From IMG/VR virus record IMGVR_UViG_3300045988_110030, positions 90,200 to 154,199 of that record: 64,000 nucleotides of DNA, one strand, 5' to 3'. This DNA comes from a virus. This document shows positions 3,422-30,700 of the stretch, one piece after another. Within the stretch, counting starts at the first letter, position 1; each line of letters opens with the position of its first letter. A program made the translations under genes and the position numbers. The notes under the pieces were generated by a model. That model was not told where the DNA came from. It was given only the letters and a program-made list of their open reading frames with translations, and made no database searches.

Positions 3422-3467
3422 TTTTTAAACCTATCCCATAACGTTGGATTTTCTCGTTTGTTTCTCT

Positions 3468-3475: not shown

Positions 3476-3490
3476 TGAAAAAAGATAAGT

Positions 3491-6322
3491 ATGAAATTAC
3501 GAATCATAAAAAATCGTCCGGTATTCGCTCCTGGTGGTAGTGTTCAGGATAAAAAACAGGATATTAATGTATCCTCTACTCAGCCTATTCTTGATTATGG
3601 AACACCTGTTAATAAATGGGGTAAATCTGATATTCAGAATATATATATGCCTTATGATGTGACTTTAGAAGCAGAGGAGGGGGAGATAAATCCATTTAGC
3701 AATATGCCTACATCTGATCCATTCTTTGAAAATCATGATGCAGGATATGCAGGATATCTTGCTGATAATAGGAGCATGGTTAAAAACGTAGAGAAATCAG
3801 TTGTTAATAATGCAATGAATGTAGGTGGCTCTGATGCTGATTCTTCTAAAGAAAAGCGATCACAAGATGGAAATCCTTTGGATCCTATGACTGCTCCTTA
3901 TTATTCTTCTGATCTTGCTGGTAGGTCCCAGATGTTTGGTGCGAGTTTGGGAAGAATAAGGGCTGGAAACAAAACCGGTGCTAACATAGCGGAGGCGGCT
4001 TTATCCGGTCTTAGTCTTGGGATGGGTCTTACCCGTAATATTATGGGGGCTTCTTCTGAGGCTTATGCCGCCAGTAGAGACGAACAAGCGGCAAGAGAGA
4101 AACTTGCCGAGAATCGCCGTCAGCAGTTTATCCGATGGGAGCGTGAAGGGGGAGGTATTAATCTTGGAAATGGTCAGAGAATAGATACGTCTGATATGAC
4201 AGGGGAATATATTTATCCTCTTCCTAAATCTATGGAGGATAATGCCAATGTTGAGATAGAAAAAGGAGAATATGTTTCGACTCCGGATGATGTTGGCCCT
4301 ATGGAGGCAAAAGGTAGCAGGCATGAAGACGGCGGCACTCCTGTTGATTTACCCGAAGCTCATATTATTTCAGATTACCGTACTATCGATGATGATTTTG
4401 CTTCTTACATAAGGGAAAATTATGGCATTAGAGCTACGGAAAAAGATACGTATGCTACGCTTCTTGATAGGTACAAGAAAAAAATAGGATTGTCTGAAAA
4501 GTATGATGATCAGGAACGTGTTTTCAAGAGGTTGGAAAAGAATAAGGATGTTAAGGATAAAAACACTTCTGAGTTAAATAAGTCCATTCTTTCTAAGTAC
4601 GTAAATGATAATCAAAAGGAAATAGACGAACTTGAGGCGCAATTCAGGTCTTTTGCTGACATCGTTTATAACAAGCAAGAGGAATCCAAGCGCCAAGAAA
4701 AGATAGATGCTTTCTTTAGAGATGGCGGAAAAGTTGATTTAAATGCTGTGAGAAAACAAGCTAAGGCTCTTAACGTATCTGAATCTGATGCTAAAAATTG
4801 GATATATGATGAGTATGTAAAGAGAGTTAGGAAAATGGCTGAAGGCGGTCCTACCAAGGAACAGATAGAGTGGGGTAAGAAAGTACAGCAGCTTTTAATG
4901 AAGCAGTTTGGACGTACTCTTAATATGTCTATAGTAGATGTTGCGGACAGAGAGCAGATTCTTAATCCTGATTCTGGTGTAAATTCTAATCAAAATCTGC
5001 AACATAGAAGTAGTGCCGGTTATGGTAGGGTAAATAACAAGGCTATTTCTAATTTGCTTGATATTAACCGTTGGGCTAATAAATACAATACGGATGGTGA
5101 TTTTAATACAGAAGGATTCCAGACTGGATACAATAGCCAACTAAATAGCCTATGGGCTTTGGCGGAATCAGGTGCTATAGCCAATGCCGAAAAAGCCAAG
5201 AAATTTAGAGACGAATACGGATTTTGGGGAGAAGATGCCGGTAAGTACGACCAAGGAAGTAAATCGGCATATAACTCATTTGCCGTAGATGACAAATTTG
5301 GACAAACTACGGCAACCAGATCATTTTATGGATTGGATGTAGTTACTCCTGAACAAAAGAGATTGTTGAATGAAAAAGGGATAAAGAATTATGTTGACTT
5401 ATTTGGTGATAAATCTGATGCAGCTAAGAAGATTCTGGGTGCCGATTATAATAAGTTTGCTGCTTTAAGAGATAGTGGTTTGATGTCGGAAATGGACTTC
5501 GTATTGGAAGCCGTAAACCCAGCATCAAAACCTATAGAAGCTGAACCTGTAGGAACCGATCCTAAATTTCCCAACCCAGGTTCTCCAGGCAGGATAGAAG
5601 TGAAGAAAGAAAATCCTGTTATTGATACTACTGTAGAAACGGAAGAAAAGGAAGAAGATGATACAAACGGAAGAAAAGGCGTCGGCCCTGCTTTATCAGG
5701 CCCTATATTCCCTGAGATGTTGAGGATGCTTGATACCGGATTAGAGATAGAGGGATTGGAAAGGCATCAGGCTCCGAGAATAGATCCGGTTCTTCAATCT
5801 GCTGATCAGTATATCAACGAGCTCAACCGCGCGACATCGGCTCAGTTGGACACAATAGGTGACGTGCCCGACTCTCAGCGTTCCGCTATTCTGGCTAATA
5901 TGAACGCCATAGCCGGAAGCAATATAGCCAAGTACATTAACGAAGTAAATTTCAATAACGCAAGGCAAATAAACGAAGCTGATAGATTTAACGAAATGGC
6001 TTATGTTCAAACAGATGATAAGAACATAGCGGAAAGGCAACGTTATGAATCCGGATTATTGAAGGCTATGGCTATAAGGGATGAAAATCTTGCTCGTTAT
6101 TATGACAGTATAAACAGCGAGATACAGAATAAGTTTAATGTTAGAACTTCATTGAACACCATAGCTTCCATAGCTCCGAATATGAGAATGCTTCCAAGTG
6201 GTCAAATTATTTACGTTCAAGGTGATCAGGATGTGATGAATATGGGTGATTATTCCACACCTTACTTGAGAAGTTTAAATGAAGAAGATGATGAAACTAA
6301 AAGAAGAAGGAGGACCAAATAG
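3491..6322 (+). CDS. Giant virion/ejection-type protein (943 aa).
   Basis: A long ORF containing low-complexity, coiled-coil and Gly/Ala-rich segments. Its stop (TAG at 6320-6322) shares one nucleotide with the GTG start of the next gene, giving translational coupling. It is the first gene of a four-gene operon of very large proteins that follows the tail lysozyme gene. Confidence 0.7.
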   Translation: MKLRIIKNRPVFAPGGSVQDKKQDINVSSTQPILDYGTPVNKWGKSDIQNIYMPYDVTLEAEEGEINPFSNMPTSDPFFENHDAGYAGYLADNRSMVKNVEKSVVNNAMNVGGSDADSSKEKRSQDGNPLDPMTAPYYSSDLAGRSQMFGASLGRIRAGNKTGANIAEAALSGLSLGMGLTRNIMGASSEAYAASRDEQAAREKLAENRRQQFIRWEREGGGINLGNGQRIDTSDMTGEYIYPLPKSMEDNANVEIEKGEYVSTPDDVGPMEAKGSRHEDGGTPVDLPEAHIISDYRTIDDDFASYIRENYGIRATEKDTYATLLDRYKKKIGLSEKYDDQERVFKRLEKNKDVKDKNTSELNKSILSKYVNDNQKEIDELEAQFRSFADIVYNKQEESKRQEKIDAFFRDGGKVDLNAVRKQAKALNVSESDAKNWIYDEYVKRVRKMAEGGPTKEQIEWGKKVQQLLMKQFGRTLNMSIVDVADREQILNPDSGVNSNQNLQHRSSAGYGRVNNKAISNLLDINRWANKYNTDGDFNTEGFQTGYNSQLNSLWALAESGAIANAEKAKKFRDEYGFWGEDAGKYDQGSKSAYNSFAVDDKFGQTTATRSFYGLDVVTPEQKRLLNEKGIKNYVDLFGDKSDAAKKILGADYNKFAALRDSGLMSEMDFVLEAVNPASKPIEAEPVGTDPKFPNPGSPGRIEVKKENPVIDTTVETEEKEEDDTNGRKGVGPALSGPIFPEMLRMLDTGLEIEGLERHQAPRIDPVLQSADQYINELNRATSAQLDTIGDVPDSQRSAILANMNAIAGSNIAKYINEVNFNNARQINEADRFNEMAYVQTDDKNIAERQRYESGLLKAMAIRDENLARYYDSINSEIQNKFNVRTSLNTIASIAPNMRMLPSGQIIYVQGDQDVMNMGDYSTPYLRSLNEEDDETKRRRRTK

Positions 6323-9300
6323 TGGCTTCACAGTATAGTATTTTAAGGCAATATGCCCCGTATGTTAGTCCTTACAACATAGATCTTGTTAAGGACGTTA
6401 TGATGTACAAACAGCAGAAGGTTGATGCTGCTCGTGAAAAGATCTATACCCAGGTAGATTATCTTATGGGTCAAGAGATAGATAAGCCTGAAGCCCGTGC
6501 TTATATGGAAGATAAGATGTCAGGTGTGATTGCTAACATCAATCAAAAATTCAAAGGCGTGGATCTTTCTTCTGATGGTGTTACGAGAGCCATACAAGGA
6601 GAAATAAGTTCGGTGTTGGATGATACGGTCATTAACGCGATTGCCGGCACCAAAGAAGGTAAGAGGGTTATGAAGGAAATAGAATCTATAAAACAGAATC
6701 ATCCTGAACTTTATTCTCCTATTAATGAATGGCATGCTTTGGATCCTTATTATAAATGGCGATCAGATGGTAAAGCCGGATCGAGGCTTGGAGGTCTTCA
6801 TTATTCTCCTTATATTGATTATACTAAGGAAATAAATAAATTGGTTAGTGATTTTAGGGAAAACAATAAAGGAAGGAAGATTCAGACTACAGAATATGAT
6901 GTAGAGGGTAAACCTACTGGTGGAATTATAGAAGTCAACGTAGATGAACTTACTGATTCCCAGATAAGGAATTTCGTGTCTGCTAACTTATCTGAAAACA
7001 TGAGGAATCAGATGAGAATAGAAGCATCATACATGGCAGCTACCAATCCAGTATTCAGTAATCCGGATTTGGTTAGCCAATACATTGGATCTTATGTCGA
7101 AAGATACGATAGGCATATAGGAGCATTGGAAGCAAAAAAGAAATCAGTAGGGGATAATAAGGATATTATTGATCGTATCGATAGTCAGATACAGGAAGCT
7201 AAAAATCAGAAAGCAGAAGCCAAGAGGGAGGCAGATATGATAATAGCTTCATCAGATCCGGTAGCGGCTGCTAATTTTGTTGTTACCAATAATCTTTTCG
7301 ATAAGATGACTGATGCATGGAGATACGACAATACAAGTTTTGAAAGGAAGAAAGATGATCTTTATTTTGCAAGATTGGCAGAGGATAGGGCTCAGCAAAA
7401 GTTTTTGACTGACAATGCCAAGTCTATGGTTGAAATATCATTGGCGAATGAGCAGCTTGCTCAGGCTAAGATTGAAACCGAATACATGCGTACTTACGGT
7501 TCCAAGATGGGCACTGAAAGCTCATCCGGAGGCACAAGAGGAGCAGGCGGTGTAGGAGTGCCGATGGCTCCTATGGACGGGCCTACGGCTATCAATTCTG
7601 GAACGGGTAAGATAGGATCTGTTAATTTGGCTAATATCCCTTATGAACAACTCACATCTTCTTCCACAGAGCGTAGAGCAAATTTATTGAAACTATATAA
7701 TTCATTATCTCCTACAGACAGAAGCAATATCGTTGCAGCATCATACGAAGAAGAAAAGACTGACCCAGGATTGTATGCTAATATGACTCCCGAAGAACGA
7801 GTGTATTCGTATTTAAAAAATAATGGAGGTCAGAAAAATGGATATTTCGGACAAGGCAATAACAGATTATCGGAAGCTTATGACGCTTTATTGGTTTCTG
7901 ATTCTAAGGCAAATGGAGCTTCGAAGGCTATAAATAATATAACTGATTATCAAATAGATAATATAGTTACTGAAAAAAATAAGGATATTATCAGGAAAGT
8001 TCGTGATGCTAAGTTCATGAAAGGAAATTCTTTTATGAATCTTACTGATACTGATGATAAGGCTGGAGCTTTCCTACTCGCCACGGCCATAACAACTGGT
8101 GTATCTGATGCCGTAGGGTTTAGAGAATACATGATGAACCCTTCAAGAGGAATAGATATTCTTAGTGCTATATCTCCGTCATTAGGAGCTAAGGCGAGTG
8201 CCGGTAAGTTGGGGAAAAACATATCTGATGCTATTACAAGCGATGGCAATAGTTCTTCTACTGGTACGTTGGCTCTTATTAATGGAATGAAGAAACTCAA
8301 TGGCGATCCTGATTTTAATATATCTGATTATATGACCATAGATAAGGACGGTGATATAGATTTAAAAGATTATCAGGAAGGTGAACCGTTAACTATTACC
8401 CAGCTAAGATATGCTGAGAAAAACAGTAGGGTGTCTGATATGATAGCAGGTCAGATGCAGGATGAGATAAAAATGTCCGTGTCTCCCGATCAGATTTCTG
8501 ATAAGTTATCTCAGTATCATTACCTTGATTCTTACAAAAGATACAATTGGAATGCTGATTCACCGGAAAAGTCTTTACAGAAGGCTCAGTTTAGAAGATT
8601 GTCTGGTTACATGGCAGGAAAGGTAAACAATCTGGATCCTACTGCTATTAATACCATCAACATGGACGCCGAGATAGATAATGGCACTGTCAGAAGATTT
8701 TTGACTGCTCAAGTAGGATCCGGTAGAGACTCTTATGTTACAGAAAGGGTAGAGATTACGAATGATGAGCTTCTTAAGGCAGGCATAGATCCTTCAGTTG
8801 AAGAGCGCAATTATCCGGTAGATGGTTACAAATCAAGTTTTGGAACCTGTGATTTTGTAGATACGGGAAAGAAGGAAGGTTATTCTTATGATAAGTATCT
8901 TATACGTAATGGTCTTCCCCGTTTGGCTTCTAAGGCTGATGTCAAGAATGATCTTTATGATATAGTAAAAATACATGGTTCTTACCTTAAGCCAGAAGAA
9001 ATGAATGTTGTTAAAACCCTTGTTGATAATTTTATTGACATGTCTGATAATATATCAGTTCAGTTGGAAGGAATGGATGATAGGGGTTCGAGAGAGGTAG
9101 CGGTCAATTTCTATGACAAAAGGACTAAAAATTCTAAAAATCCTGCATTGTTATTCTCGGATTTTGTTCCTTTGGATCCAGGTAATGATGAGTATGCGGA
9201 TTACTGGAATAACATTCACCAGAAGTGTCCTCAGTATTTCTTTGTAAAATACGTGAAGGAAGCTGTTCAGGAGCGTCTTGATCAGATGAGGGATCCATAT

Positions 9301-9387: not shown

Positions 9388-12300
9388 TAATGTAAATAGA
9401 TATAATCCTGCTGCTAAAACCACTTACGAAGATGTGGCAAGGCAAAGGAAATTAGCCGAAGAAGAAAATTACACTCCGGCTACATTACCAGAGACGACAA
9501 CGCCTCTGGTTCCTAATTATATGCCGGGAGAGGGCGTGTATGCCCAACCTAAATTTCCAGATTATGCATCAAGGATAGCTGCTGCCCAGTATGAAGAACC
9601 GTATATAGCCAAGGAGATAAGCAACAGCTACTCAGAGGCACTGGCCCGCAACAGCTACAGGGGGGCTACACCCGCCCCGCCGCCTCTTAATCCCTATGGA
9701 CCAAAGGTAAGTATCCGTGAAAGTCATCAGATGGGTAATGATGGGGTATGGCGCACAAAATATCCCAATTATATCCCAGGTATAAATAATGAGGATTATT
9801 ATGCCAGAAGGCAAAGTGGTTGGAGTAAGTTTTGGAATGGTGTAGGTAAATTTGCCTTAAAGTCTGCATTGTATGGGGCCCAGGGAACTATATCATTACC
9901 CGACAAGCTTATTAATATGGCATCTGAGGGAAGTTATAAGGCAGCTTTGAATACGAACATGGATAAGTTTGTTGGTGATCTTGATCAGCGAATAGACATG
10001 CTTCTTCCACATTATTACAAGAAAGAAGTAGAAGATTACAATTTTGGTCAGAAGCTTTTTAAGGATACTGGTAATTTTTTATGGAATGACGTCCTTGGCA
10101 ACGGAATGTCTTTTACCGTAGGAGCCATGATATCAGCATACATGACCGGAGGACTGGGAGTTGGTTCATTAGGTAACATAGGCGCAAAATTAGGTGGAAG
10201 AGTCGGAGCTAAGCTGGCAGCAAGACAAGCTGCCAATAGAGGTATAGGAAGTCTCAAAAGTGTGTTTAACGACTATGTAAGGAAAGGAGTTGCTACCGGG
10301 AGGAATGTAGGAGAGGCTGCTAAGACCATGACGTTGTTGGCTACCAGTGCCGGCTTTGAGTCATCGGTTGAAGCAAATTCTTTTATGAAACAATCCGAAT
10401 CCGACTTCAAGGATTATTATCGTAAAATTTATGGTCGTGATCCTAATGCTGAGGAAATGGCTGTTTTTCGTAATTCTAATGCTGATGTAGGTAGTGCGAT
10501 ATTTGCAGCTAATATGGGTATAGTAGGATTGTCCAACTGGCTCTTGTTTGGTAAATACATAGGATTAGGAGGAAAGGCTATACCAGGACTGGAAAAGAAA
10601 CTTAATAAGCATCTATTTGGATTAGGGACGGAAGTTACAAAGCCAGGAGAGATGGCTATTAAGATAACCAACCCTAACATAGGGCAGAAGATAGCTGGTA
10701 ATGTTTTCAATATCATGAAAAGACCAGTGTCCGAAGGTTTATGGGAAGAAGGGTCTCAAGGTGCTGTCCAGAACACGGCTGAAGAATATGTTAAGTCAAG
10801 ATATGACAATGTGGCTATGAATGGAGCCGTCGATGTTCTTGATGCTATTTCTGACGGATTTAAAAAACAATATACGTCTAAAGAAGGATGGACTGAAATA
10901 GGAATAGGTGCTATTATCGGTTCTTTGTTCGGCATGAGAGAAGGCTTCTTTGGGGTAAAAGAGTATAGTAATAGTCAGATATTACTAGAGAGGCAGGTGG
11001 ATGAATACAACAAAGCATCTTCTAATCTTAATACGGCGGCTTTGAATACGTTGAAGAAGTCAATGAGTTTAGGTCCGCAAGTTCGTTCCGATGCTCAGTC
11101 TATGACCGGCAAGGAGCTTGATGATGCTATGTTTGAAAAGATGTCTATTGACAACCAAATGGGAACCTTAGAGGATTCGGCTGAGAATTTCAGGCAGATG
11201 GTTGATATGATGCCTATTTCAGAAATAGCTGAAGCTAATGGGATGTCTTTAGAAGAGGCAAAGAAATACAAGGACTCTATTATTGATAATTATAATAATC
11301 GTCTTTCTGATTTCAGATCTGCTCAGAGTTTTGCTGAAGATCTTATAGGTGATGACTCTAAGATTGAATTTAGGAAATACGTGGCTCGTAATGCCTTCCT
11401 TGGTCTTCAATCAGAATCAAGGATGAAAGACATAGCTTCTGTCATAGAAACGCTTTCAGGACAGCCTCGCGTGGCAGATGCGCTAAGTACGTTCTCCCGG
11501 CTGTCGGACAGAGCGAGGGAGCGGGCGATGGCTATCCGTGGCATACGATCAAGAATAGAAGAACTTGAATCCGAAATAGAAGATCTTGCCACCCGTCCTC
11601 GTAACGTAGATGGAAAAGACCCACAAGCTGAATCTATACAACGAAAAACCAAAGAATTGGAAGATCTTAGAACCAATTACAATAATTCGTTGTCTGAGTT
11701 ATCAACGTTAATAGGAAAAGAGTTTTCGATAGAAGAGTTGGTAAGTAAAACCGAATCTGTTTTATCATCACCTCTTTCTCCCATAAGTTCACAAGATGTA
11801 ATAGAAGCCTATGATGCTCTTGTGGCTTTTGATGATTATTTTAATGTAAAATCAAGACAGGAAAAGAAGTTTACGGCCAAAGACAAAGCCATGAGATCCT
11901 TGGTAAATGAATACCGTAGGAGTTTGATGGACTATAGGAATATGAATAATTTCTTGTCTAAGATGCTTGATAAAAGATTCTTAGATGAGGAAAACAGGGG
12001 ATTTTCAAAAGCGCTGTCTTCTCTATGGTCTACTCCTTATAAGGAGGATGACAAGGTTCCTGATTTTGCAGAGCCTAATAAAGTCGGTGAATATGATACT
12101 GATGAGGTAGTAGATCAAGCTGTGTCAGAAGGTAAGATTTCGGAAGACGAAGCTTGGACTATCAAAGCATTTATGCATGCTCTTGATAAAGTAAGAGAAG
12201 ATAGGATGAAGGAAGCGGAAGATAATATAAAAGAGTCATCGCTTACGGAGTCTGTATCAGATGAAGATTATGAGGCTGCTATGGATAATCCTATTATGGT

Positions 12301-19945: not shown

Positions 19946-20014
19946 GTTTCTGTTTTTGCTGAAAATATTTCTCTTCTATAAGAAATAAACACACCTATAT
20001 TCCACCTTACAATC

Positions 20015-21079
20015 ATGAACTTTGTTACGTGCTTCATGCACGTATGTTTAACAATTAAATACTATAAAATTATGGGTGGTGATAAAATCGTCCTTTTAGA
20101 TGGAGCCGGGGCTAACGGTGGTGGTGCAGCCACTAACGGTCTTCTTTCAATGATTCCCGGCATGTTTGCTAATTTGATAGGTGGTAATAAAATGGATCCG
20201 AATCTGGTGGCGGCTTTGATGAACGGTCGTAACAACCAGGACGGTTTCGGTGGGGCTAACGGTTGGTGGCTCTGGATAATTGTTTTGTTCTGGCTGTGGG
20301 GTGGACGCGGCTTCGGTAACGGTTTTGGAAATGGCGGTGATTGTTGTGCCAATGGTTTGCCGGCTCAGTTGAATAACGATTACGGTCGTGAACTTTTGAT
20401 GCAGGCAATTCAAGGTAATCGTAGCGCCATAGATCAGATTGCTTCTGCTTTGAACTGTTCTACTACTCAACTTCAGAACGCTATCTGCAACGTACAGGGT
20501 GCTATTGATAAAGTAGCTGGTCAGGTAGGTATGACTTCTCAGGCTGTTATCAACGCAGTTCAACAACAAGGTTGTGAAATAGGAAATCAAATCAGCTCTT
20601 GCTGCTGCAATCTGAGTTCGTTGATCAATCAAAGCACTTGCCAGACTCAGGGAATGATTACTCAGCAAGGTTTTGATAACCAGCTTCGCACGTTGGAACA
20701 AACCAATATCTTGCAGAACGGTCTCAACCAAGGTCTGGCTAACAATCGTGAGCAAGCTACAAGCCAATTCAATATCTTGTCTGCGAAACTTGACGCCCAA
20801 ACCGTTATGATCAACGACAAATTCTGTCAGTTGGAAATGAGGGAGATGCAGAACACTATTGCTCAACTTCGTGAAGAAAAAGCGGCTTTGACAGCTTCGG
20901 CATTATCTCAGCAACAAACCCAGAATATCGTTGGTCAATTACGCCCGACGGCCGTCCCGGCCTACCCCTCTTGTTCTCCTTACCAGGCTTATACTTGGGG
21001 ACAGGTATTCGGAGGAGGTTGCTGCAATAACGGATGTGGATGTAACAACGGATGTTGCAATAACAACGCTGCTGTCTGA
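20015..21079 (+). CDS. Highly unusual low-complexity protein. It has a Gly/Asn-rich N-terminus, a Trp-rich transmembrane segment (GWWLWIIVLFWLWGG), GFGNGFGNGG repeats, a long Gln/Asn-rich helical region and a Cys/Asn/Gly C-terminal tail (GGGCCNNGCGCNNGCCNNNAAV).
   Basis: A 354-aa ORF. The start could instead be the internal MGGDK at ~20072. Directly read composition. No recognisable family. Confidence 0.55.
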   Translation: MNFVTCFMHVCLTIKYYKIMGGDKIVLLDGAGANGGGAATNGLLSMIPGMFANLIGGNKMDPNLVAALMNGRNNQDGFGGANGWWLWIIVLFWLWGGRGFGNGFGNGGDCCANGLPAQLNNDYGRELLMQAIQGNRSAIDQIASALNCSTTQLQNAICNVQGAIDKVAGQVGMTSQAVINAVQQQGCEIGNQISSCCCNLSSLINQSTCQTQGMITQQGFDNQLRTLEQTNILQNGLNQGLANNREQATSQFNILSAKLDAQTVMINDKFCQLEMREMQNTIAQLREEKAALTASALSQQQTQNIVGQLRPTAVPAYPSCSPYQAYTWGQVFGGGCCNNGCGCNNGCCNNNAAV

Positions 21080-21102
21080 TTTTATTAAGAGAGGAGGCTA
21101 AT

Positions 21103-21516
21103 ATGGCTTGTGTTTCTAAAATAGGATCGTTGTATGAGATGGTTACGAAGAATGTTATTGTCAGTACGACAAATACAATCTTCGGTATTAACCCACGGGC
21201 TTGGATCGCCCTTCCGTGTGAGGGTCTTATCCTTCTTAAGATAAGGCAAGTAGTCCCCACAGCCGGAAGTGCTCTACCGGTACAGATTGCGGTCCCGGCA
21301 AACAGCACAGTTTCAACAGTAGGAGCCGACACCTGTTGCTCGGTTACGGGAGTGAATGTCGTGAACCCTATTAACGTAGCTGTAACGGGTGCTGCTATGG
21401 TAAATGGCACAGAACGCCTTCTGTACTTCAATAAAGTTCGTGGCGTGTTAAGATTAATGGATTGCTGTGTTCCAGTAGCGGCAGCCCAGGCGTCTGAAGT
21501 TAAAGCAGGTAAATGA
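21103..21516 (+). CDS. Hypothetical protein (137 aa), rich in Val/Ala/Thr with paired cysteines.
   Basis: Preceded by a strong Shine-Dalgarno sequence (GAGAGGAGG, 8 nt upstream of the ATG). Sits in a cluster of co-oriented small genes. Confidence 0.55.
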   Translation: MACVSKIGSLYEMVTKNVIVSTTNTIFGINPRAWIALPCEGLILLKIRQVVPTAGSALPVQIAVPANSTVSTVGADTCCSVTGVNVVNPINVAVTGAAMVNGTERLLYFNKVRGVLRLMDCCVPVAAAQASEVKAGK

Positions 21517-21566
21517 TTTCAGTAGGGTGATGGAGATCATCACCCTATTTTCACCTAAATAATATT

Positions 21567-22061
21567 TTGATCATGTTTTCAGATTTGAAGAAAGGGTTTC
21601 AGGTACATACCCTTGATACTAATACAGTACCTAAATACGAATTGGGAAAGGTAGTAGCCGTATCCGAACCCAGGTATCTTCCTCCTCAGCCGGGTCAGTA
21701 TCAGGCGATGCAGACCCGCGTGGTGGATCTGACGGTAGAGCTCACTGGCGAAACCAAGACCTATACGGTTCCGGAATCCCAGAATGTGGCTAAGGCTATG
21801 GGTATAACATTATCTACCAGCATAGATCCGATTATGAACGAACTGAATGCTATAAAAAACACCAGTCAAGACATAATAAACAGCGTAGATGCCCATCGTG
21901 CCAAGATAGAGGCTTGTGAATCTATATTAGAAGACATCAATCCGGCATTCAAACAAACGAGAGAGCAGGATCGTAAAATAGCTGGTATAGAAAATAAGGT
22001 GAATGACCTTACTGATTCATTCGAAGATTTAAAGAAGTTGATTGTAGAACGTTTGAAATAA
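21567..22061 (+). CDS. Hypothetical coiled-coil protein (164 aa).
   Basis: An ORF with a heptad-like C-terminal half, tightly spaced with its neighbours. Confidence 0.5.
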   Translation: MIMFSDLKKGFQVHTLDTNTVPKYELGKVVAVSEPRYLPPQPGQYQAMQTRVVDLTVELTGETKTYTVPESQNVAKAMGITLSTSIDPIMNELNAIKNTSQDIINSVDAHRAKIEACESILEDINPAFKQTREQDRKIAGIENKVNDLTDSFEDLKKLIVERLK

Positions 22062-22068
22062 GTATAAT

Positions 22069-22440
22069 ATGATAGTATATGATTTAAATTCAGGGCAAAG
22101 AGAATATCCTGGATATGATGAGATAGAAGATAGACGAGGCAGAGGCCGTAGTCGTCGTTCTGATGGGACGTACATGGGTTACGGACATGGATTCCTTCCT
22201 CCTTATGACCATTATGGTATGCATGAAAAAATGAAAGAGATGGAAGAACGCGAAAACGAGTTGGAAGAAAGAGAAAGAAGACTCGAAGAACGCGAACGTC
22301 GTCATGAAATGGAGGACCGGGAATACCGGAGGATGGGTTACGAATCTTACCCGACCGATTATTATGGAGACGACAGATACTACGGTGACGGACCTCAGAT
22401 GCGTAGAGGTCGCGGACGTGGCAGAGGTCGTTCTTATTGA
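22069..22440 (+). CDS. Hypothetical low-complexity protein. It is RG-, Tyr- and ER-rich (RGRGRS…, EERERRLEERERRHEMEDREYRR, C-terminal RGRGRGRGRSY).
   Basis: Directly read. It resembles eukaryote-type RGG/RG nucleic-acid-binding low-complexity regions. Confidence 0.5.
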   Translation: MIVYDLNSGQREYPGYDEIEDRRGRGRSRRSDGTYMGYGHGFLPPYDHYGMHEKMKEMEERENELEERERRLEERERRHEMEDREYRRMGYESYPTDYYGDDRYYGDGPQMRRGRGRGRGRSY

Positions 22441-22533
22441 GGAGCAGACGCAGAGGATCCAGCTTATCAGAAATATGTAGATACTTACGGCTACCATTTT
22501 TCTAATGCTCTCGCTGATGAGGCGGTAAAGAAG

Positions 22534-22827
22534 ATGGTCAACGTCGATGGATCCAAGAGGATCTGGAAGCAGCCGGAAATAAAAGATATTTTTGAAAAGT
22601 GCGGAGCGAAGAAGCCGGATAAAGCGACATGGGGCGATGTCCAATATGTCTTTGCAATGTACTATTCGGATGGTTTTCCGAAGGTCTTCAAATGTGAGAA
22701 CGAGTTGGTGAAAGCTACGTTAATGTATTTGGATGATCCGGATGCTCCCGAAGGAGTAGCCTTTATAAGATGGCTTGCCGTGCAAGATTACCTCGGCGAA
22801 AAAATAAACTGGAAGGATCTGACCTGA
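22534..22827 (+). CDS. Hypothetical protein (97 aa).
   Basis: The ORF ends ~100 nt before a GC-rich hairpin plus T-run at 22930-22985. Confidence 0.4.
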   Translation: MVNVDGSKRIWKQPEIKDIFEKCGAKKPDKATWGDVQYVFAMYYSDGFPKVFKCENELVKATLMYLDDPDAPEGVAFIRWLAVQDYLGEKINWKDLT

Positions 22828-22929
22828 GATCCAGATCCAGGTCCTTCCGGTGGTGCGGGAGCCATAGTGAAAAATATGATTCCCGCATTCCCGTTTTTCC
22901 CGTTTGGAAAAAAAGAATAAAAATGTTAT

Positions 22930-24562
22930 ACCGGTCGGCGGGCAATAGAATACCCGTGGCCGGTTTGTTTCACATAACTTTTTTTGGATATGAATATAGC
23001 ACACGAATCTAAATCGAATAAAACCCCATTGTATTTAATAGGAGAGTTGATTGGCGTACCGAATACGGTTATGGACTCAGCATTGCATGAACTGAAAGAT
23101 AGAATAGACAAAGACCCTAAATGGGTGATTATATACCACTTTACACCAAAAGCGTAAAGTAATACACATTTATACGGAAATTCGTACCGGGTTACACCAA
23201 AACCCTCTACCTTCTGGTAACATCGTTACATCAAAGGATTCTTTTTCCGATTTACGGATGATGTTAAAAGCACCATTGATATCAGCATTAATTGTCTTAC
23301 CAGAAGAGGTTTTAAACAATCCTCGTTTGATCCTTCTTCCTTTGTAGGATTCATGTTTGCAAATCCGTTCATTATCTAAAAAGCTACATTTTGAAGTATA
23401 AGATTCTTCAACGATCTTAACATTAATACCTTCTAATGTAGCTTTATACGATATCATACTGATAAACGAATTAAAAGGAATAGATACAAAGTTCTGATTA
23501 TTACGCTTTCCAATATTGATCTCTTGTTTCCAGTATTTGTTATGACCGATTATGATCGTATTAATACCATTGGAAACTACATGATTAACCAATATTCTAC
23601 TTGCTTTATGCAGATAGTCTTTGATCTTGTTATTCCTTTTGTCGGTTAATGACCTTATTTGTTTTGAAATCTGTTTATTGTCTTTTAACTTAGATTTTAA
23701 GAATGCTAACCTTTTGTTATAATATTGGTTAATAGACTTTAGTGGCCTACCATTGATGATAAAACAAGAACCGGTGTTTGAAACACAAGATGCTAAATTA
23801 TCCAATCCTATGTCGATGCCAAGATAGTTCCCATTATCGGACATAAGATTCTTTTCCTTCTTATTGTAAACTATTTCAAGAACAATATACCCATTCTTAG
23901 GAATGAATCTAAGTTGTTGAATATTTTGCTTGTTAGTTCTTGTTGTAAAGGAAAACTGTTTTGGTAACTTAACAATGCCTTGTTTTATCCATTTTTGAGA
24001 AAAAGCATTTGTTGCAAAAACAGCAGGAAACAAACCACCCTTGTTGAGATACCTTGGCATTCTTACTTCCTCAGAATACTCACCTCTATTCTTTTTATTA
24101 AAGAGATTGAAGAAAGATTTAAAGTTTCTATCAACCATCATCAACACTTGTTGAGCAACCGGTGCTGGTAAAGCACGATAGTCAACATCATTTTCTGTTC
24201 TTAACTTCTTTTCAAGAGAATAGTAGTTTAGGTACTTATACTTTACAGTATTATCATCCTTGTATTGAAAATAATACTGTCTAACAACATATAACCCTTT
24301 ATTGTATAAGTTTTTACACTTATGCAATAGATCATAAAGTTCATTGTAATAAACAGAACTTGGTTTGATCGTATGTTGTTCGACTAATCTCATGACACAA
24401 ATATAGAAATTATTATTTATATATGAAAACAAATTGGCGTATTTGTGGTGTAAAGTTGTATATAATTACCTAAAGATGTTAAAAATTGGCTCGAATCTTT
24501 ACCCAAGATCTGAACCTATTTTTTTTCAATACCGGGCCCGATGCGATTTTAACGTATCGGGT
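22930..24562 (-). mobile_element. IS200/IS605-family tnpB-only (IS1341-like) insertion element. Boundaries are approximate. The tnpB 3'-flanking 150-250 nt (≈22930-23170) would encode the TnpB guide RNA (reRNA/omega-RNA).
   Basis: The tnpB ORF is flanked by GC-rich subterminal hairpins in an AT-rich background. One is 22930-22964 (accggtcggcggg…cccgtggccggt). The other is 24528-24553 (cccgatgcg-attttaa-cgtatcggg followed by TTTTT). There is no TnpA (HuH) ORF. TTCCCG-type short repeats occur at 22880-22915. Confidence 0.55.
23170..24432 (-). CDS. tnpB: TnpB (OrfB) RNA-guided nuclease of the IS200/IS605 family.
   Basis: RuvC-I is YLGIDIGLDNLA. RuvC-II is …TIIIGHNKYWKQEINIGKRNN… with its Glu. 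A zinc finger (CSFLDNERICKHESYKGRRIKRG…) is followed by RuvC-III (INADINGAFNI). The likely true start is the internal MRLVEQ…. Confidence 0.85.
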   Translation of the reverse strand: MFSYINNNFYICVMRLVEQHTIKPSSVYYNELYDLLHKCKNLYNKGLYVVRQYYFQYKDDNTVKYKYLNYYSLEKKLRTENDVDYRALPAPVAQQVLMMVDRNFKSFFNLFNKKNRGEYSEEVRMPRYLNKGGLFPAVFATNAFSQKWIKQGIVKLPKQFSFTTRTNKQNIQQLRFIPKNGYIVLEIVYNKKEKNLMSDNGNYLGIDIGLDNLASCVSNTGSCFIINGRPLKSINQYYNKRLAFLKSKLKDNKQISKQIRSLTDKRNNKIKDYLHKASRILVNHVVSNGINTIIIGHNKYWKQEINIGKRNNQNFVSIPFNSFISMISYKATLEGINVKIVEESYTSKCSFLDNERICKHESYKGRRIKRGLFKTSSGKTINADINGAFNIIRKSEKESFDVTMLPEGRGFWCNPVRISV

Positions 24563-24641
24563 TTTTATTTTAATTCATATTGTTTTATTTTAAATCTAAT
24601 TAATTCATGAATGTCGTACTTTTGTTGAAAAAGTATTCTAT

Positions 24642-24869
24642 ATGGAAAATAAGGAAGATTACGTTGGTTACGAAGATCAAGAACTGTGTAACCGGTATTA
24701 CAAAGAGGCTGAAGCCATGAGGCAAAAGCAGGACTGGTCTCGTCTTAGGGCTGTCCCTGCTCCGGCCAAGGGAACGCCATCGCCCGGCTGGGGACAGCTT
24801 GGACGTGGAAATGATGTCCGTGTTAAGTACGTTAGCATCAATTCAGGATTAGGAGGGGACAGATTATGA
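24642..24869 (+). CDS. Small hypothetical ORF (75 aa) between the two IS-type nuclease genes.
   Basis: ORF only. Could be non-coding. Confidence 0.25.
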   Translation: MENKEDYVGYEDQELCNRYYKEAEAMRQKQDWSRLRAVPAPAKGTPSPGWGQLGRGNDVRVKYVSINSGLGGDRL

Positions 24870-25230
24870 CCGTAGAAGAATTAGCTAATAAAAGATACGG
24901 TGGCGAATTTGTTTTCATAATTGTGAATAATACATAACTCATACAAATCATAACCAATTTGTATTGTATTATGTATAATAGCCAAAAGCTATTCCGATTA
25001 TTAGCCTAAGTGTTGAAACAAACACTACGTTATTTAAGAATAGATAGTTACCTACGGATGTTTGCCCAAGTTCGTAGCTCTAAGGTAAGTGATTAAACAA
25101 TGGTTGTATTCGAGCTATAGTGTTGCTTACTAAAAACCTTAAATAACATTGGCGATGGGTACTAACAGAGTTTTACTCTGACTTATGTTGAATAAACATT
25201 AAAAACGTTTGTAGATATGGTGTACGTACA
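24870..25230 (+). ncRNA. Putative IscB omega-RNA (guide plus scaffold). It lies immediately upstream of, and overlaps, the iscB start.
   Basis: A 350-nt ORF-free region with nested GC-containing stems (for example ctacgga…ttcgtag and gttacc…ggtaag). It is located exactly where IscB omega-RNAs are encoded. Boundaries are not determinable by eye. Confidence 0.45.
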
Positions 25231-26437
25231 AGACATAAATGGTAAACCTATGATGCCTACAACAAGGCATGGTAAGGTTAGGAGACTGCTCAAATCAAAC
25301 AAAGCAGTCGTTGTAAACCTATGTCCGTTTACCATCCGATTGACGTACATATCCGATAGTTACAAACAAGAAATCGTGTTAGGCGTTGATGCTGGGACTA
25401 AACATGTTGGTTTATCAGCTACGACGAAAAGCAAAGAACTTTACAGCAGTGAAGTGATCCTTAGAAATGATATCGTAGATCTTTTGTCTACCAGAAGAGA
25501 GCTACGGAAAGCAAGACGGAACAGGTTAAGATATAGAAAACCTCGTTTTAATAATAGAGTAAAAAACAAGCGTCCAGGATGGATAGCACCTTCGGTGCGG
25601 TACAAAGTAGACGCCCATATTCGTGTTATTGACAATGTATGTTCTATATTACCAATATCTCGTATTGTTATTGAAGTAGCTCAATTTGATACTCAAAAGA
25701 TTAACAATCCTAATATATCAGGTAAGGAATATCAGGAAGGAAACAAACTTGGTTTTTGGAACGTAAGGGAGTATGTTTTAGCAAGGGATGGGCATAAATG
25801 TCAGTATTGTAAAGGAAAATCGAAATCCAAAATCCTTAATGTCCATCACATCGAATCCCGAAAAACGGGAGGTGATTCCCCTTCTAATCTTATTACCTTA
25901 TGTGAAACTTGTCATAAAGAATACCATAAAGGTAATATAGATTTAAAGATCAAACGGGGATCGTCGCTTCGCGACGCAGCCGTAATGGGAATTATGAAAT
26001 GGAGGTTGTATGAAGAGTTAAAATCCAGATACGACAGAGTTTTTATGACGTTTGGTTACATTACGAAACATAATCGGATTAAATACGGTATTGAAAAATC
26101 CCATACATCCGACGCGTTTGTCATTTCTATGAACATTAATGCGAAACGGATCGAACGTCAATATTTAAAACGTTTAATTCGTAGACATAACAGGCAAATA
26201 CATAAAATGAAAATTTTAAAAGGAGGAAAGAAGAAAAACAATCAAGCTCCTTTTGAGGTTTTCGGTTTTAGATTGTTTGATAAAGTGTTGTATAACAATG
26301 AAATATTCTTTGTTTATGGAAGGAGAAAATCGGGGAGTTTCAACATCAGGGATTTCAACGGAGAAAATTCAAAAGATGTTTCACGCAAAAAGTTTAAACT
26401 CATTAGAGGGAAGAGGCATCCGATTATATTAAAGTAA
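25217..26437 (+). CDS. iscB: IscB (OMEGA system RNA-guided nuclease, the Cas9 ancestor), with PLMP, RuvC-I, an Arg-rich bridge helix, RuvC-II, HNH and RuvC-III.
   Basis: The N-terminus MVYVQDINGKPMMPTTRHGKVRRLLK is the PLMP domain. RuvC-I is IVLGVDAGTKHVGLSA. The bridge helix is RRELRKARRNRLRYRKPRFNNR. RuvC-II is IVIEVAQFD. HNH is HKCQYCKGKS…NVHHIESRKTGGDSPSNLITLCETCHKEYH. RuvC-III is HTSDAFVISMN. At 406 aa it is a typical IscB length. Confidence 0.85.
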   Translation: MVYVQDINGKPMMPTTRHGKVRRLLKSNKAVVVNLCPFTIRLTYISDSYKQEIVLGVDAGTKHVGLSATTKSKELYSSEVILRNDIVDLLSTRRELRKARRNRLRYRKPRFNNRVKNKRPGWIAPSVRYKVDAHIRVIDNVCSILPISRIVIEVAQFDTQKINNPNISGKEYQEGNKLGFWNVREYVLARDGHKCQYCKGKSKSKILNVHHIESRKTGGDSPSNLITLCETCHKEYHKGNIDLKIKRGSSLRDAAVMGIMKWRLYEELKSRYDRVFMTFGYITKHNRIKYGIEKSHTSDAFVISMNINAKRIERQYLKRLIRRHNRQIHKMKILKGGKKKNNQAPFEVFGFRLFDKVLYNNEIFFVYGRRKSGSFNIRDFNGENSKDVSRKKFKLIRGKRHPIILK

Positions 26438-26474
26438 ATGAATAGATTTAATAAATTTAATAGAAAAACGTATC

Positions 26475-26780
26475 ATGTATAATAAAGAAATAGTAATATG
26501 CGCGGCTATATGGGTACAGGACAACAAGAAGCGTCCCCATCAGCCCACCAACATACCATCCGGTACCGTGTTCTGTGGACTAAGACATTGTTCTATCATT
26601 TCTCAGTTTGTAGCTTATGGTATTGCTCATAAGAACCGTAGTGTGCAAGGATTTTTAACAAGCAAGAATCGGTTTTTAACAAGAGAGGAGGCATCTGAAC
26701 TTGTTAAGAACAATAATCAGGAGATGATAGTAGATAGGAATGCTATTAGAGAACAATTGTATTCAGAAGATTTATATTGA
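26475..26780 (+). CDS. Hypothetical protein (101 aa).
   Basis: ORF, co-oriented and tightly spaced with its neighbours. Confidence 0.4.
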   Translation: MYNKEIVICAAIWVQDNKKRPHQPTNIPSGTVFCGLRHCSIISQFVAYGIAHKNRSVQGFLTSKNRFLTREEASELVKNNNQEMIVDRNAIREQLYSEDLY

Positions 26781-26796
26781 CTAAAAACAAAATAAT

Positions 26797-27147
26797 ATGG
26801 GATTTATAATCAAGAAGTCAATCACTTATAATATGATGGACGGCAATCAGTTAGAGTATGTATTTGACAACATTAATTTAGATCATATCACATTTAAAGG
26901 TAATGGTAAAGAATCTTTTTCATTTAACAGAGCCCTTGTTGAAAATTTAATTGAGACATTTGATACTATGCAGGATATATACTCTGATAATTACGGAATT
27001 AAGGTTTATACCGGTAATTGCATAATTCAACTGAATGTAAATCCAAAGAACTTAAGTGAATCCTTTTTTGACGTATATGATAGAGATGGGATGAAATTGA
27101 TATATAGCATACAAAATAGTGTCTTGAAAGAAATGTTTATAATATGA
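26797..27147 (+). CDS. Hypothetical protein (116 aa).
   Basis: ORF. Confidence 0.4.
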   Translation: MGFIIKKSITYNMMDGNQLEYVFDNINLDHITFKGNGKESFSFNRALVENLIETFDTMQDIYSDNYGIKVYTGNCIIQLNVNPKNLSESFFDVYDRDGMKLIYSIQNSVLKEMFII

Positions 27148-27216
27148 TTACCAGGCAGGACATGTCATAAAAAATGGCGTAATTGAACTATTTAAACAAA
27201 TAATGAAGTCGGGTAC

Positions 27217-27573
27217 GTGAGTTATCCGACTTTTTCGTATATTTGTGGCATGGCAAAAGGTTATTATTGGATACCACAAACAGATGAAACGTTAAATGGC
27301 ATAAGCTATTACGTGACTAAGGTAGTAGGAGATATAGTGTTTGATACTAAACGAAAAAGAATAGTGTTTCAAACTACCAGGTATTTCCCAGTAGGCTCCG
27401 TATTCCATTTTACTCACAACTGCTTTAAATACGTCATAACCTGCCGGCTCCGTAAGCCGGGGCTGTGGTATGAGGCAAGGAGGGAAGACTGCGGACCTAT
27501 TGGACCGGATGATGTGGAAAGGTTCGAATCAGGAAGGTTTATTCATAGAAATGGGTACAAATATAATGCGTAA
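27217..27573 (+). CDS. Hypothetical protein (118 aa).
   Basis: ORF. Confidence 0.4.
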   Translation: MSYPTFSYICGMAKGYYWIPQTDETLNGISYYVTKVVGDIVFDTKRKRIVFQTTRYFPVGSVFHFTHNCFKYVITCRLRKPGLWYEARREDCGPIGPDDVERFESGRFIHRNGYKYNA

Positions 27574-27683
27574 GCGTAACTTGACGATTTACGTCAGATT
27601 ATAATTATTTTTTCATATGTATATTAAGCCGTCAGACTGGGAAGTTAGACGGCTTTGTTTTTATCATGTGCCTGATTTTTAAT

Positions 27684-27691
27684 TACCTTTG
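27684..27691 (+). promoter_or_regulatory. TACCTTTG (TAnnTTTG -7-like motif) 23 nt upstream of the ATG at 27714.
   Basis: Directly read. Confidence 0.35.
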
Positions 27692-27713
27692 TGTCAAAAC
27701 AAAATAAATTCTT

Positions 27714-30700
27714 ATGGCGTCAACGTGTATTATTAAAAGAGATAATAAAAAGAAAGTTGTTTCTGTCTCTACCAGATCAGGGGACAGGTCTATGTTGTTT
27801 GATAAAATAGCATCTATTCCTCTTATGGAAAATAGGGAGCGGGCTACTACTGTTTTTAAAACCGTATTTTCTAATAAGTTCTTAAAGGCTTTTGGCGACT
27901 GGAGAAAGAGAGTGCCTATCAACAAACCGGCTTATAATAAGGTAAAATCCAACATCGATCTTATTCCGGAAGCCTATAGAGAAAGGGTGCTGGATAAGGC
28001 TTCTAAGATGAGTAATCCTGTTCTTGTGTCAAAATCAGATGCACCTTATGAAATCCGAGAATCGGGCTTTGGATTCTACAGCCAAGATCTGGGTGATAAT
28101 ATTATGTTGGTGGATGCTATGGTTCCGTCAAGGATCTCCGTGCCGGAAGAACCAGGAATAGACTCAGGGCAGTATCTACAAGATGCTATATCTTCGGACT
28201 TCACTCCCGTATCTATGGTACAGGATAATGATGTTAATTATATGGTTATAAAAGACGGTCTTAAGATATTTAGTCCAGAAGAGCTACCAGAAACAGATTC
28301 TAATCCTGTGGGTGTAACGTATCAGACTGGAGAACCTCGTTTGTTTTTTATGAATGATCGTAATCAATTATTTGAAGATTACGGAGAAGCTCTTCGCTCT
28401 GGCGGGAATGATATCAGAATAGGATTCTTATCTGGCACCGTTCAAGAATCTGCCTGGGATGGCGTGGCAGACATTACTTACAAGGCTGGAAAGTATGTCC
28501 TTAACAACCCCAAATCTTTTATACCTGTTATGACCGCCTCTGCTTCCACTTCTTTATCAACAAAAGGTGGGATAATAAACTACCTTATAAAGAAAGGTCT
28601 TTTGTCAGGATCCAAGATATTCGATCCGGAAACAAGAAGCTATTATCTTACAGGAGAAGGACATGCAGGACAAATTAGACTTTTCAATTCAGCCTTAGCT
28701 TATACCGAACTTCGTAATCATTTCAGTTCTGATGTTTCCATGAATGATCAAGGCATGATAACCATAAATTCATTGGATAATAGTAAGGTGACTATGAGAC
28801 TCGCCACCGGAGGAACAGAAAGAGTTAGCAAGGAGCAGATAAAGAGCGATCTTAAGTCTGGAAGATACAATGAATTGGATGCTAAATACGATCACTTTGA
28901 TGCGCTTGTAGTTTCATTTATATTAGAAGACAATGATCTTTATGCTGATACTAAAGCTAAGATAGTATCGGATTATAGCCAAGAGGAACGTAATCAACGA
29001 AATTCTATTGTTGAGATACTGAAAACGCTGGGCGTTAGTGTCGTTGGCATGACCGATTATATAGAGAAGTACCAAACTAAATACGGACACGAACCTTCTG
29101 CTAAAGCATTGGCGGATATTGCCAATAACGTAATAGCAGTCGGTGAAGATGCTACTTTGTCTGACTTAGTAGAAGAAACAGCCCACTTCCTTGTAGAGGC
29201 GTACAGAGATCAGAATGCTGTTGAATCTGTTTTGCAAGACGTAGAAGGCACTGAAGAATGGAATCAGTATGCAAATCAGTATTATAATACATACGGTAAG
29301 GTATATGAAGGAACTGAACTTGACAATGTAGTTAGGAAAGAAATTCTTGGAAAGATCCTTGCCAGGGAGATGCAGGACAGAACGGCGCCCATAGAGCCCA
29401 CCTCCTTCCTGGGACGCGTCCGGCAGCTTCTCTCTGGAATCGTAAACTGGCTTAAATCAGCTTTATCTACCCAAAGACAAGATTTGAATAACGTTATTAA
29501 AAACATTCGTGATCTTGCTATTACCGACATAGATAAAGGATTTGATACTTCTCTTTTAAAGGATAATGATTTTACATTATACTCTCTTTCCTCTATGAAC
29601 AAGAACAAGTTTCTTGAGTCTAAGATCCGGGCATTGAGAAAAACATTGAGAGACTTACGTCAGATAAGCTCTGATAGGGCTGTAACTACATCTATGACCC
29701 TTGCTCAACTTAAGACCATAGAAGATAAGATAAATAAGGTAGAGACCGAAATAGACAAAAATGAGATGGCGGCTGCCATGAATAGCATGATCTCCACAGC
29801 CGAAGCTCAGGTCAGATACTTAAGCAATGTAGTAAATACTATCCTTCATGGTGATACCAAAGACGGTAAACTTCATTTCAATACCAATGATCGAAAGAAC
29901 GTAGATATTATCAACAATCAGGTTCTTCCGATCATGAACGATCTTCGAGGATATATCCGTAATAGAAGTACCGAATTTGACGAACGTGAAAAGCAAGATT
30001 ATACAAATAGGATCAATACCGTCATTGCCGACATCAATGGTATTCAGTCTGATATTAAATCAGTACAAGATCTTGATGAAAGTACGTTGCTTGACAAGTT
30101 AATGAACGAACTTCATGTGCCGGTAGATAAGGTAAAGAAAGTAAAAGAGTTCTTTGATAAAGTCCAACACGATGTGTCCTGGATAAGTAGGTGGTTTGGT
30201 ATATTAGAACATTCTTCCAGCCCGTTTAATAACGCTCTTGGAGCTATGATTGCCAAAGACAATTATAATGCGATGGTGAATGCCCAGCCAGCCATATCCG
30301 ACTTCCTGGCATATGCGAAAAAACATGGTTTCAATAAATCTGAATTTGAAAAACTGCTTCAGAAAGTAGACGGCAAGACTTCTAATTATCTTCGTAGTGT
30401 TCTTGATATGGCTAAATACGATCGTAATAAGAAGCTGGCGCAGATGCGAGCGTTTGCAACTGCCATGAACATAGAGATATCAGAAGAAGAAATCAATGAT
30501 GTGGTTGACAATAACCGTAATTATGTGTTTAAAAGAGAAGTAGTTGACAAGGACGGAAATACGGTTACTGAGAACGCTAAATTCAAACCTTCTTCTGATA
30601 GGGTTAATACCGACATCTTTACCATCGAGCAGGAAAGGATTTATACAGAACAGATGGAGAAGTGGGATGCTGAAAATTCAGAACTGGAATTTAGTGAAAG

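Follow-up and report, generated by a model that had tools for sequence, protein, structure and literature searches.

We find that positions 23124-24470 of a 64,000-nt stretch of virus DNA (the window; IMG/VR record IMGVR_UViG_3300045988_110030, positions 90,200 to 154,199) are a discrete mobile insertion whose sole gene is tnpB. TnpB is the ancestor of Cas12, and its benefit to the elements that carry it is debated. Judged by its ends and its relatives, the insertion is a non-autonomous IS1595-type transposon with TnpB, a probable RNA-guided nuclease, as cargo, likely cutting the element-free (empty) alleles of co-infecting phages. We give this reading as a whole a probability of about 0.72.

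The source is an epsilon crAss-like gut phage, and the flanks of its tnpB insertion are 96-98% identical to those of crAssE-Sib (OR575929.1), itself an epsilon crAss-like phage (PMC11054128). With a crAssE-Sib stretch (L001) as empty-site reference, window positions 20000-23122 align to 3001-6130 and positions 24471-24918 to 6132-6579 of that stretch. The insertion is absent from crAssE-Sib at the same site (break points 23123/4 and 24469/70), where the empty allele reads CATCTTTATATTTAGGGTCTTTGTCTATT, and homology among 181 IMG/VR copies ends at the identical two positions. The database holds 575-578 stretches coding for close relatives of this TnpB, several contigs having two or three copies, and the junctions compared represent a minimum of 41 distinct insertion sites. 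A first-pass annotation of the sequence had proposed a TnpB-only mobile insertion at 22930-24562 and a comparison with an uninterrupted genome; that comparison confirms the insertion and corrects its extent. The GC-rich subterminal hairpins taken there as the bounds of the element do fold (22931-22964, z -2.5; 24534-24564, terminator-like, z -3.5, with a near-identical counterpart at L001 6195-6225), but they lie 64-190 bp beyond the element ends and are both found in the empty-site phage. They are therefore terminator-like phage features and not insertion sequence (IS) ends.

The insertion has replaced the last 13 codons of a small phage gene, the homologue of WOZ57312 in crAssE-Sib. The resulting open reading frame (ORF; 22984/22990..23157) now takes its final 11 codons and its stop from the right end of the element. 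The first-pass annotation had put the small overlapping ORFs called at 22720-23111 down to artefacts of an RNA gene; this ORF is no such artefact but a truncated homologue of an annotated phage gene. Two independent insertions, oppositely oriented, have struck the gene, one in the window lineage and the other in L062/L064 (duplication TAGGAGAG; L146 is the L062 copy fetched again and no separate case). The window is the empty site for the L062/L064 insertion, and the gene is presumably dispensable.

The element is bounded by terminal inverted repeats of ~28 bp, opening with GGTGATTATATACAACTTTACACC... and closing with ...GGTGTAAAGTGGTATATAATCACC, for which the window contains two matches versus 0.03 expected. 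The ends have the form GGnnATTAT and are ISNwi1-like by the ISNwi1 end consensus of ISfinder. Comparison of 50 distinct junction pairs revealed an 8-bp target-site duplication in 21 of them (perfect in 18, with one mismatch in 3), and at least nine of the duplications are confirmed by empty alleles in other contigs that hold the 8-mer only once. A scan with the repeats showed that the same sequences also bound 2.4-5.5-kb elements, which code for a 307-aa IS1595-family transposase (in L107 at 11068-11991; Pfam DDE_Tnp_IS1595, 2.8e-42; NCBIfam transpos_IS1595, 192.7 bits against a cut-off of 75) together with variable passenger genes. Members of the IS1595 family have inverted repeats and A/T-rich 8-bp direct repeats (PMC12561309). 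The transposase-bearing siblings sit in phages 90-96% identical to other parts of the window, and at least eight contigs hold both a TnpB element and a transposase element. We looked among the elements with these repeats for one that joins tnpB and the transposase and found none, and the 53 window ORFs of at least 100 aa include no Y1 TnpA, resolvase or IS1595 transposase. Since tnpB is the only gene and the window lacks an IS1595 transposase, the element is non-autonomous. We infer that the IS1595-type DDE transposase of the siblings, often present in the same phage genome, moves it by cut-and-paste; the number of distinct sites and the co-residence in single contigs are indirect support for such mobilisation.

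The flanks of the insertions carry a T-W-A motif (W is A or T), which on the tnpB-sense strand occupies positions -11 to -9 in 27 of 41 unique left flanks against a background of 8% (p = 4e-20); position -9 is A in 37 of the 41. In 47 of 48 cases T is the base directly past the right end, with which the duplication begins. TnpB elements with a duplication have T-W-A upstream in 18/21 cases and at the mirror position downstream in 4/21, compared with 3/16 and 3/16 for the transposase-bearing siblings with the same repeats and a duplication (Fisher tests, p = 6e-5 for TnpB against transposase elements and p = 3e-5 for upstream against downstream). Being one-sided and absent in the siblings, the motif thus tracks the TnpB cargo and its orientation, not the transposase. 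In an empty genome T-W-A immediately precedes the stretch that the guide (duplication plus flank) would match, and in an excision scar it would not. The motif looks like a target-adjacent motif (TAM) placed for the targeting of empty alleles, and because it adjoins the guide match only there, attack on empty alleles would be the most likely function of the system.

The window copy obeys the same rule on its left side, where TTTTTAA is followed by CATCTTTA. On the right side only CAT of the duplication is left, at 23123-23121, and is followed by phage sequence 8 bp further on. This right flank starts with C, the sole such case among the 48, and the C matches position -8 of this allele. The simplest reading is that the original duplication was CATCTTTA and that 8 bp of its right copy were lost later; duplication loss at rearranged copies is on record for IS1595 elements (PMC12561309). 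We had also considered a duplication-free insertion after TTTA at this junction and dropped it, because the left flank fits T-W-A plus 8 bp and the C of the right flank corresponds to position -8.

The same transposon could also be read with T-W-A(T) as a mark of target choice or orientation bias, and with TnpB serving donor-site restoration or transcriptional control. A/T-rich targets are indeed preferred by IS1595 elements (PMC12561309), and the transposase-bearing siblings show a weak preference for T/A as first and A as last base. The strong one-sidedness of the motif and its absence from siblings with the same repeats nevertheless speak against this explanation, as does the geometry of an excision scar, which would put the duplication rather than T-W-A beside the guide match, so that the position of the motif fits the empty allele only. 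The RuvC triad of the protein is moreover intact, unlike that of nuclease-dead TnpB repressors, and we regard this alternative as unlikely.

A putative scaffold for the guide RNA of TnpB at ~23124-23270, overlapping the 3' end of tnpB, is supported by conservation and covariation. Third-codon diversity among copies averages ~0.25, as against 0.085 over the final 50 nt of the ORF. The last ~114 nt of the element (23237-23124) form four hairpins in a consensus fold, in which 98.6% of cells are paired as compared with 38-43% in slid-partner controls (45 distinct sequences), and the observed covariation score was reached by none of 500 shuffles. In the terminal hairpin 13 of 16 pairs vary through G·U/A-U/G-C changes; such G·U-tolerant covariation fits an RNA on the tnpB-sense strand. 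The inner half of the right inverted repeat is part of this hairpin (z -5.9), whereas at the left end the remaining 49 nt before the ATG have no significant structure (z -0.6). A search with Rfam (E up to 1) over positions 20000-29000 matched no TnpB guide-RNA family, its only strong match being HEARO upstream of the neighbouring iscB. The first-pass annotation had placed the scaffold at 22880-23170. An overlap with the 3' end of tnpB is supported, but 22880-23123 is phage DNA common to crAssE-Sib.

Processing of the tnpB transcript at its 3' end probably yields the guide RNA, with a scaffold (23237-23124) that would end in the hairpin built with the right inverted repeat. Because the guides of TnpB proteins lie immediately 3' of the right end, we place the guide at 23122-23103; it would thus be the next ~20 nt of phage DNA (counted from 23123 or 23122), within the small phage gene. 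The earlier expectation that the phage sequence at the junction sets the guide is supported. The predicted 20-mer is unique in the window and has a 20/20 match to the empty crAssE-Sib allele, beside TTTAT; the register of this match is shifted, and T-T-A-T precedes it here as well. In the genome that carries the element ...TCACC comes before the target, so that self-targeting would not occur.

The mechanically called ORF on the minus strand (23170..24432, 420 codons) likely starts at the ATG at 24393, which is conserved in all homologues and gives a protein of 407 aa (MRLVEQH...). This protein is a TnpB. It matches Pfam OrfB_IS605 (4e-22) and Cas12f1-like_TNB (1e-12), NCBIfam guided_TnpB (187 bits, cut-off 100) and TIGR01766, and scores 41.5 bits with NCBIfam IS200_TnpB (cut-off 425). 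An AlphaFold2 model (mean predicted local distance difference test score, pLDDT, 84.3) returned Cas12f (1e-17), ISDra2 TnpB (8h1j, 2e-15), ISFba1 TnpB and Fanzor2 in a Foldseek search. By sequence, a family profile reaches ISDra2 TnpB (8bf8, 7e-9); a search of the PDB with the single sequence returned nothing. In a family alignment of 20 members (50-93% identity) the RuvC residues Asp-194, Glu-330, and Asp-371 are invariant, in agreement with the intact RuvC motifs noted in the first reading of the sequence. The zinc finger reported along with them could not be found: a C4 zinc finger (CxxC...CxxC) between RuvC-II and RuvC-III is absent throughout the family, and the sole conserved cysteine is Cys-336. 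Zinc-finger-less TnpB branches are known and considered active (PMC10691335), so the missing finger does not exclude the protein from TnpB. The ratio of nonsynonymous to synonymous substitution rates (dN/dS) is 0.05-0.11 between copies at different sites, and the ORF is intact in all copies examined. These values indicate that tnpB is under strong purifying selection, and TnpB probably acts as an RNA-guided DNA nuclease.

Such selection sits badly with the view of the element as an inactive relic, in which TnpB is dead, the 3' conservation marks a transposase-binding end and ordinary phage recombination spreads the copies. The absence of the zinc finger and the many rearranged junctions would suit a relic, and carriers of an identical junction that differ completely past 450 bp on one side are consistent with mosaic recombination. 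Yet the left end, which would need transposase binding as well, has neither a hairpin nor extended conservation, the G·U-tolerant covariation fits an RNA of tnpB sense, the insertion sites are numerous, and TnpB branches without the finger are considered active in the source cited above. We judge a relic to be improbable.

Hardly any weight can be given to the family assignment made in the first-pass annotation, a TnpB-only IS200/IS605 (IS1341-type) element with subterminal hairpins, moved as single-stranded DNA by a Y1 TnpA supplied in trans and inserted 3' of a TAM without duplication: the protein matches OrfB_IS605 and TIGR01766, the window copy lacks a duplication and has a left flank ending in TTTA, and there are hairpins near the coordinates given, but these hairpins are phage sequence outside the insertion, the true ends are ~28-bp inverted repeats with 8-bp duplications at 21 sites, the IS200_TnpB score is far below its cut-off and the partner elements code for an IS1595 DDE transposase. 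IS200/IS605 elements have neither terminal inverted repeats nor a target duplication (PMC13565253, section 5.1), and the assignment therefore fails. The statement that TnpA is missing was borne out (no Y1_Tnp in the window), and dependence on a transposase acting in trans can be retained, with an IS1595-family DDE enzyme in place of a Y1 TnpA as the partner.

Several points weigh against a mobile IS1595-type element whose TnpB attacks empty alleles. Twenty-nine of the 50 junction pairs have no duplication, often with one flank common to another allele, which points to rearrangements and to junctions that are not always simple. The window copy itself is without an intact duplication, its 8-bp loss being deduced from the flanks, and the window, 64 kb of a larger phage genome, has no transposase gene. 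Covariation in the scaffold comes from close relatives (82-100% identity), with double changes in just four pairs. A pseudoknot between a loop GGUG and the 3'-tail CACC (94.7% paired) shows no compensatory change and is kept as a candidate, and the T at position +1 can be assigned to the guide or, as in IS607 TnpBs, to the scaffold. T-W-A could be something other than a TAM. As the family has no zinc finger, nuclease activity should not be assumed from ISDra2. Finally, 13 carriers of an identical junction gave no informative picture of a co-conversion gradient, their sequences being uniformly similar on one flank and passing into a hypervariable cassette 450 bp out on the other.

In the mechanism that we propose, TnpB and its guide RNA would cleave element-free alleles in co-infecting phages. 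The outcome would be either acquisition of the element through recombinational repair (non-restorative homing) or destruction of the competing genome. We infer this homing or exclusion step between co-infecting phages from the position of the motif and guide. A wider generalisation is tentative, and we would place it somewhat short of even odds: a DDE transposon captured an RNA-guided nuclease in crAss-like phages, and each new insertion is a self-programming homing element. The transposase would insert the element anywhere, only copies in the right orientation and 8 bp downstream of a T-W-A(T) TAM would cut empty alleles, and these copies would sweep through the phage population.

The nearest relatives of this TnpB outside the inverted-repeat clade are of IS607 type: the gene of a 57%-identical homologue (P0099) directly follows a resolvase-domain (serine recombinase) gene in eight contexts, an IS607 arrangement. 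Other homologues are solo genes without such inverted repeats (P0085 and P0106, 51-52% identity) or lie at one fixed locus that lacks them (P0043, 59% identity), so that capture by the inverted-repeat element would be confined to the sub-clade of the window TnpB. From these two observations, it appears that an IS1595-type element took up a TnpB of IS607 lineage; the window has no resolvase, and the IS607 arrangement was found only in the relative P0099. A second, unrelated TnpB (L055 4942-6272; also L174, L105, L060, and L013) has 410 aa, a canonical C4 zinc finger and an NCBIfam IS200_TnpB score of 408 bits, and lies between the same IS1595-type repeats with an 8-bp duplication (TATTGCAC/TATTGTAC). 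As it is unrelated and yet enclosed by the same repeats, the transposon family has captured TnpB at least twice. At the end of the window (63412-64000, plus strand) is the N-terminal part of another TnpB-like gene, cut by the window boundary, whose product shares 24% identity with the second TnpB type across 210 aa (tblastn E 5e-8).

Short derivatives with the same repeats, resembling miniature inverted-repeat transposable elements (MITEs), measure 166-332 bp (L085 3615-3937, L112, L162, L164 6736-7067, L111 1853-2124, and L157 6058-6223), and some share the exact site and duplication with a full TnpB element in another phage. Internal deletion has left them the terminal 88-124 nt of the right end, where the core of the guide RNA is predicted to lie, and they might supply guide RNAs to TnpB made elsewhere. 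When bacterial genomes were scanned for the inverted repeat, no autonomous copy was found, only short MITE-like pairs and scattered single matches. The pairs (~100-215 bp) are in Butyricimonas and Rikenella, and a single repeat is in Parabacteroides (L209, L213, and L214, Butyricimonas metagenome-assembled genome; L216, Rikenella microfusus; L211, Parabacteroides sp.). One TnpB fragment, 89% identical, is in Parabacteroides goldsteinii (P0031). The occurrence of the repeats in Bacteroidales hints at the host range of these phages.

Two further sites bear on the ends of the element. At the L074 site the junction reads TATTCTTTTA [element] TACCCTAACA, and the allele of another contig reads TATTCTTT-GGTAATTA-TACCCTAACA, with the left inverted repeat reduced to its first 8 nt; it looks like an excision or repair footprint. 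A solitary inverted repeat precedes a phage gene for a glycine-rich 260-aa product by ~175 bp (L046 ~1861, plus strand; L031 ~5272, minus strand), and full TnpB elements are inserted just downstream of it in either orientation. The site is a local hot spot with a remnant end.

Features of the tnpB element and its junctions in the window
Feature	Position	Strand	Details
Whole mobile element	23124..24470	-	1,347 bp; empty site in crAssE-Sib; 181 copies with the same ends
TAM-like T-W-A motif	24479..24481	-	reads TAA on the minus strand and abuts the left duplication copy on its 5' side
Left copy of the original 8-bp target-site duplication	24471..24478	-	minus strand CATCTTTA
Left terminal inverted repeat	24443..24470	-	minus strand GGTAATTATATACAACTTTACACCACAA
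tnpB coding sequence	23170..24393	-	407 aa + stop; D194, E330, D371; no C4 zinc finger
Predicted guide-RNA (omega RNA or right-end element RNA, reRNA) scaffold	23124..23270	-	core 23237-23124; conservation, hairpins, covariation
Scaffold hairpins, four	23237-23210, 23205-23189, 23187-23172, 23168-23130	-	consensus fold
Right terminal inverted repeat	23124..23151	-	plus strand GGTGATTATATACCACTTTACACCAAAA; inner part is the 3' arm of the terminal RNA hairpin
Predicted guide	23103..23123	-	23122-23103 = ATTTAGGGTCTTTGTCTATT; of the right duplication copy, the first base (23123, C) survives
Small phage gene	22990..23157	+	56 aa; 'DNA binding protein' in the crAssE-Sib annotation; homologue WOZ57312

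A second obligate mobile element-guided activity (OMEGA) system lies 500 bp from tnpB and diverges from it. It comprises an IscB gene (25217-26437, plus strand; Pfam RRXRR 3e-59 and HNH; NCBIfam guided_IscB 358 bits) and, ahead of it, a HEARO/omega RNA (24975-25166, plus strand; Rfam 103 bits, gathering threshold (GA) 83). Both are part of a hypervariable cassette (24919-26471), in place of which crAssE-Sib and many IMG/VR relatives have other genes; homology always breaks at 24918 and resumes at ~26472. Relatives that bear IscB share sequence only from ~24993 onward, and the guide of IscB would therefore be ~24973-24992. A sub-threshold Rfam match to a ribosomal S15 leader (28874-28988, plus strand; 31 bits against a GA of 39.5, E 3.5e-4) is probably due to chance in a phage genome.

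The tnpB element resembles IS1341-type members of IS200/IS605 in its solitary ~400-aa tnpB, its length of ~1.3 kb, the predicted scaffold overlapping the 3' end and the dependence on a transposase in trans. It differs from them, as they have no inverted repeats or duplication (PMC13565253) and use a Y1 HUH transposase, in having ~28-bp repeats, an 8-bp duplication and a DDE partner. It is also comparable to the DDE-associated TnpB branches of Altae-Tran et al. 2023 (PMC10691335). There, prokaryotic or viral TnpBs lie within symmetrical inverted terminal repeats, the 3' end of TnpB is <250 bp from the transposon end, and solo TnpBs share their ends with transposase copies. Unlike in those branches, TnpB and the transposase never occur in one element here. 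The DDE families named for TnpB association in that work (IS630; PMC10691335) and in PMC13565253 (ISL2/IS1031) do not include IS1595. Fanzor2* and Fanzor1 elements (Yoon et al. 2023, PMC10711439) offer a likeness among eukaryotic cut-and-paste transposons, since an IS607-lineage TnpB was captured there by a transposon with inverted repeats and duplications, and the elements are non-autonomous, multi-copy and viral, with the inverted repeat built into the 3' end of the scaffold. In our case, by contrast, the carrier is a bacteriophage and the transposon is a member of a prokaryotic IS family. Its 8-bp duplication is variable and so cannot belong to the scaffold as a constant part, and the TAM-like motif is located outside that duplication.

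IS1595-family elements with passenger genes were reportedly described by Siguier and co-workers in 2009. With those of ISNwi1 type the window element shares GGnnATTAT-type ends, an A/T-rich 8-bp duplication (PMC12561309) and the variable cargo of its siblings, but it has lost or never had a transposase, and its cargo is an RNA-guided nuclease. In its predicted behaviour it would resemble free-standing phage homing endonucleases (Seg/Mob of T4) and the 'transposon non-restorative homing' of PMC13565253 (section 6.1), with the empty allele cut and the element copied by repair. Recognition would differ from that of Seg/Mob in being exerted by a guide RNA that is re-programmed at each new insertion. 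Non-restorative homing by TnpB is a matter of theory and has been shown for IS605 on plasmids, not for phages or DDE elements (PMC13565253).

For the annotation of these phages, our analysis means that the TnpB 'transposases' noted in epsilon crAss-like phages, where the ends were not analysed (PMC11054128), are the cargo of IS1595-type elements, and that the true transposase is another gene. The protein is a compact, zinc-finger-less TnpB of 407 aa with a short scaffold and a predicted A/T-rich TAM. Its apparent passage from IS607 to a DDE element in a prokaryotic virus is like the route proposed for Fanzors (PMC10711439), and would, if the reading given here is true, be a prokaryotic parallel to the capture of Fanzors by eukaryotic transposons. 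The locus is a natural test case: phages carry this DDE element in many copies (at least 575 in IMG/VR), and empty alleles are at hand.

In the accepted model, scarless excision by a Y1 or serine transposase is followed by TnpB-dependent restoration of the donor site, which leaves the retention of TnpB by a DDE cut-and-paste element unexplained. If our reading is true, homing between co-infecting phages would be a selective reason for the association of TnpB with DDE transposons, and the elements of crAss-like phages would be evidence from nature for 'non-restorative' homing by TnpB, through which an element spreads in viruses in the manner of a gene drive.

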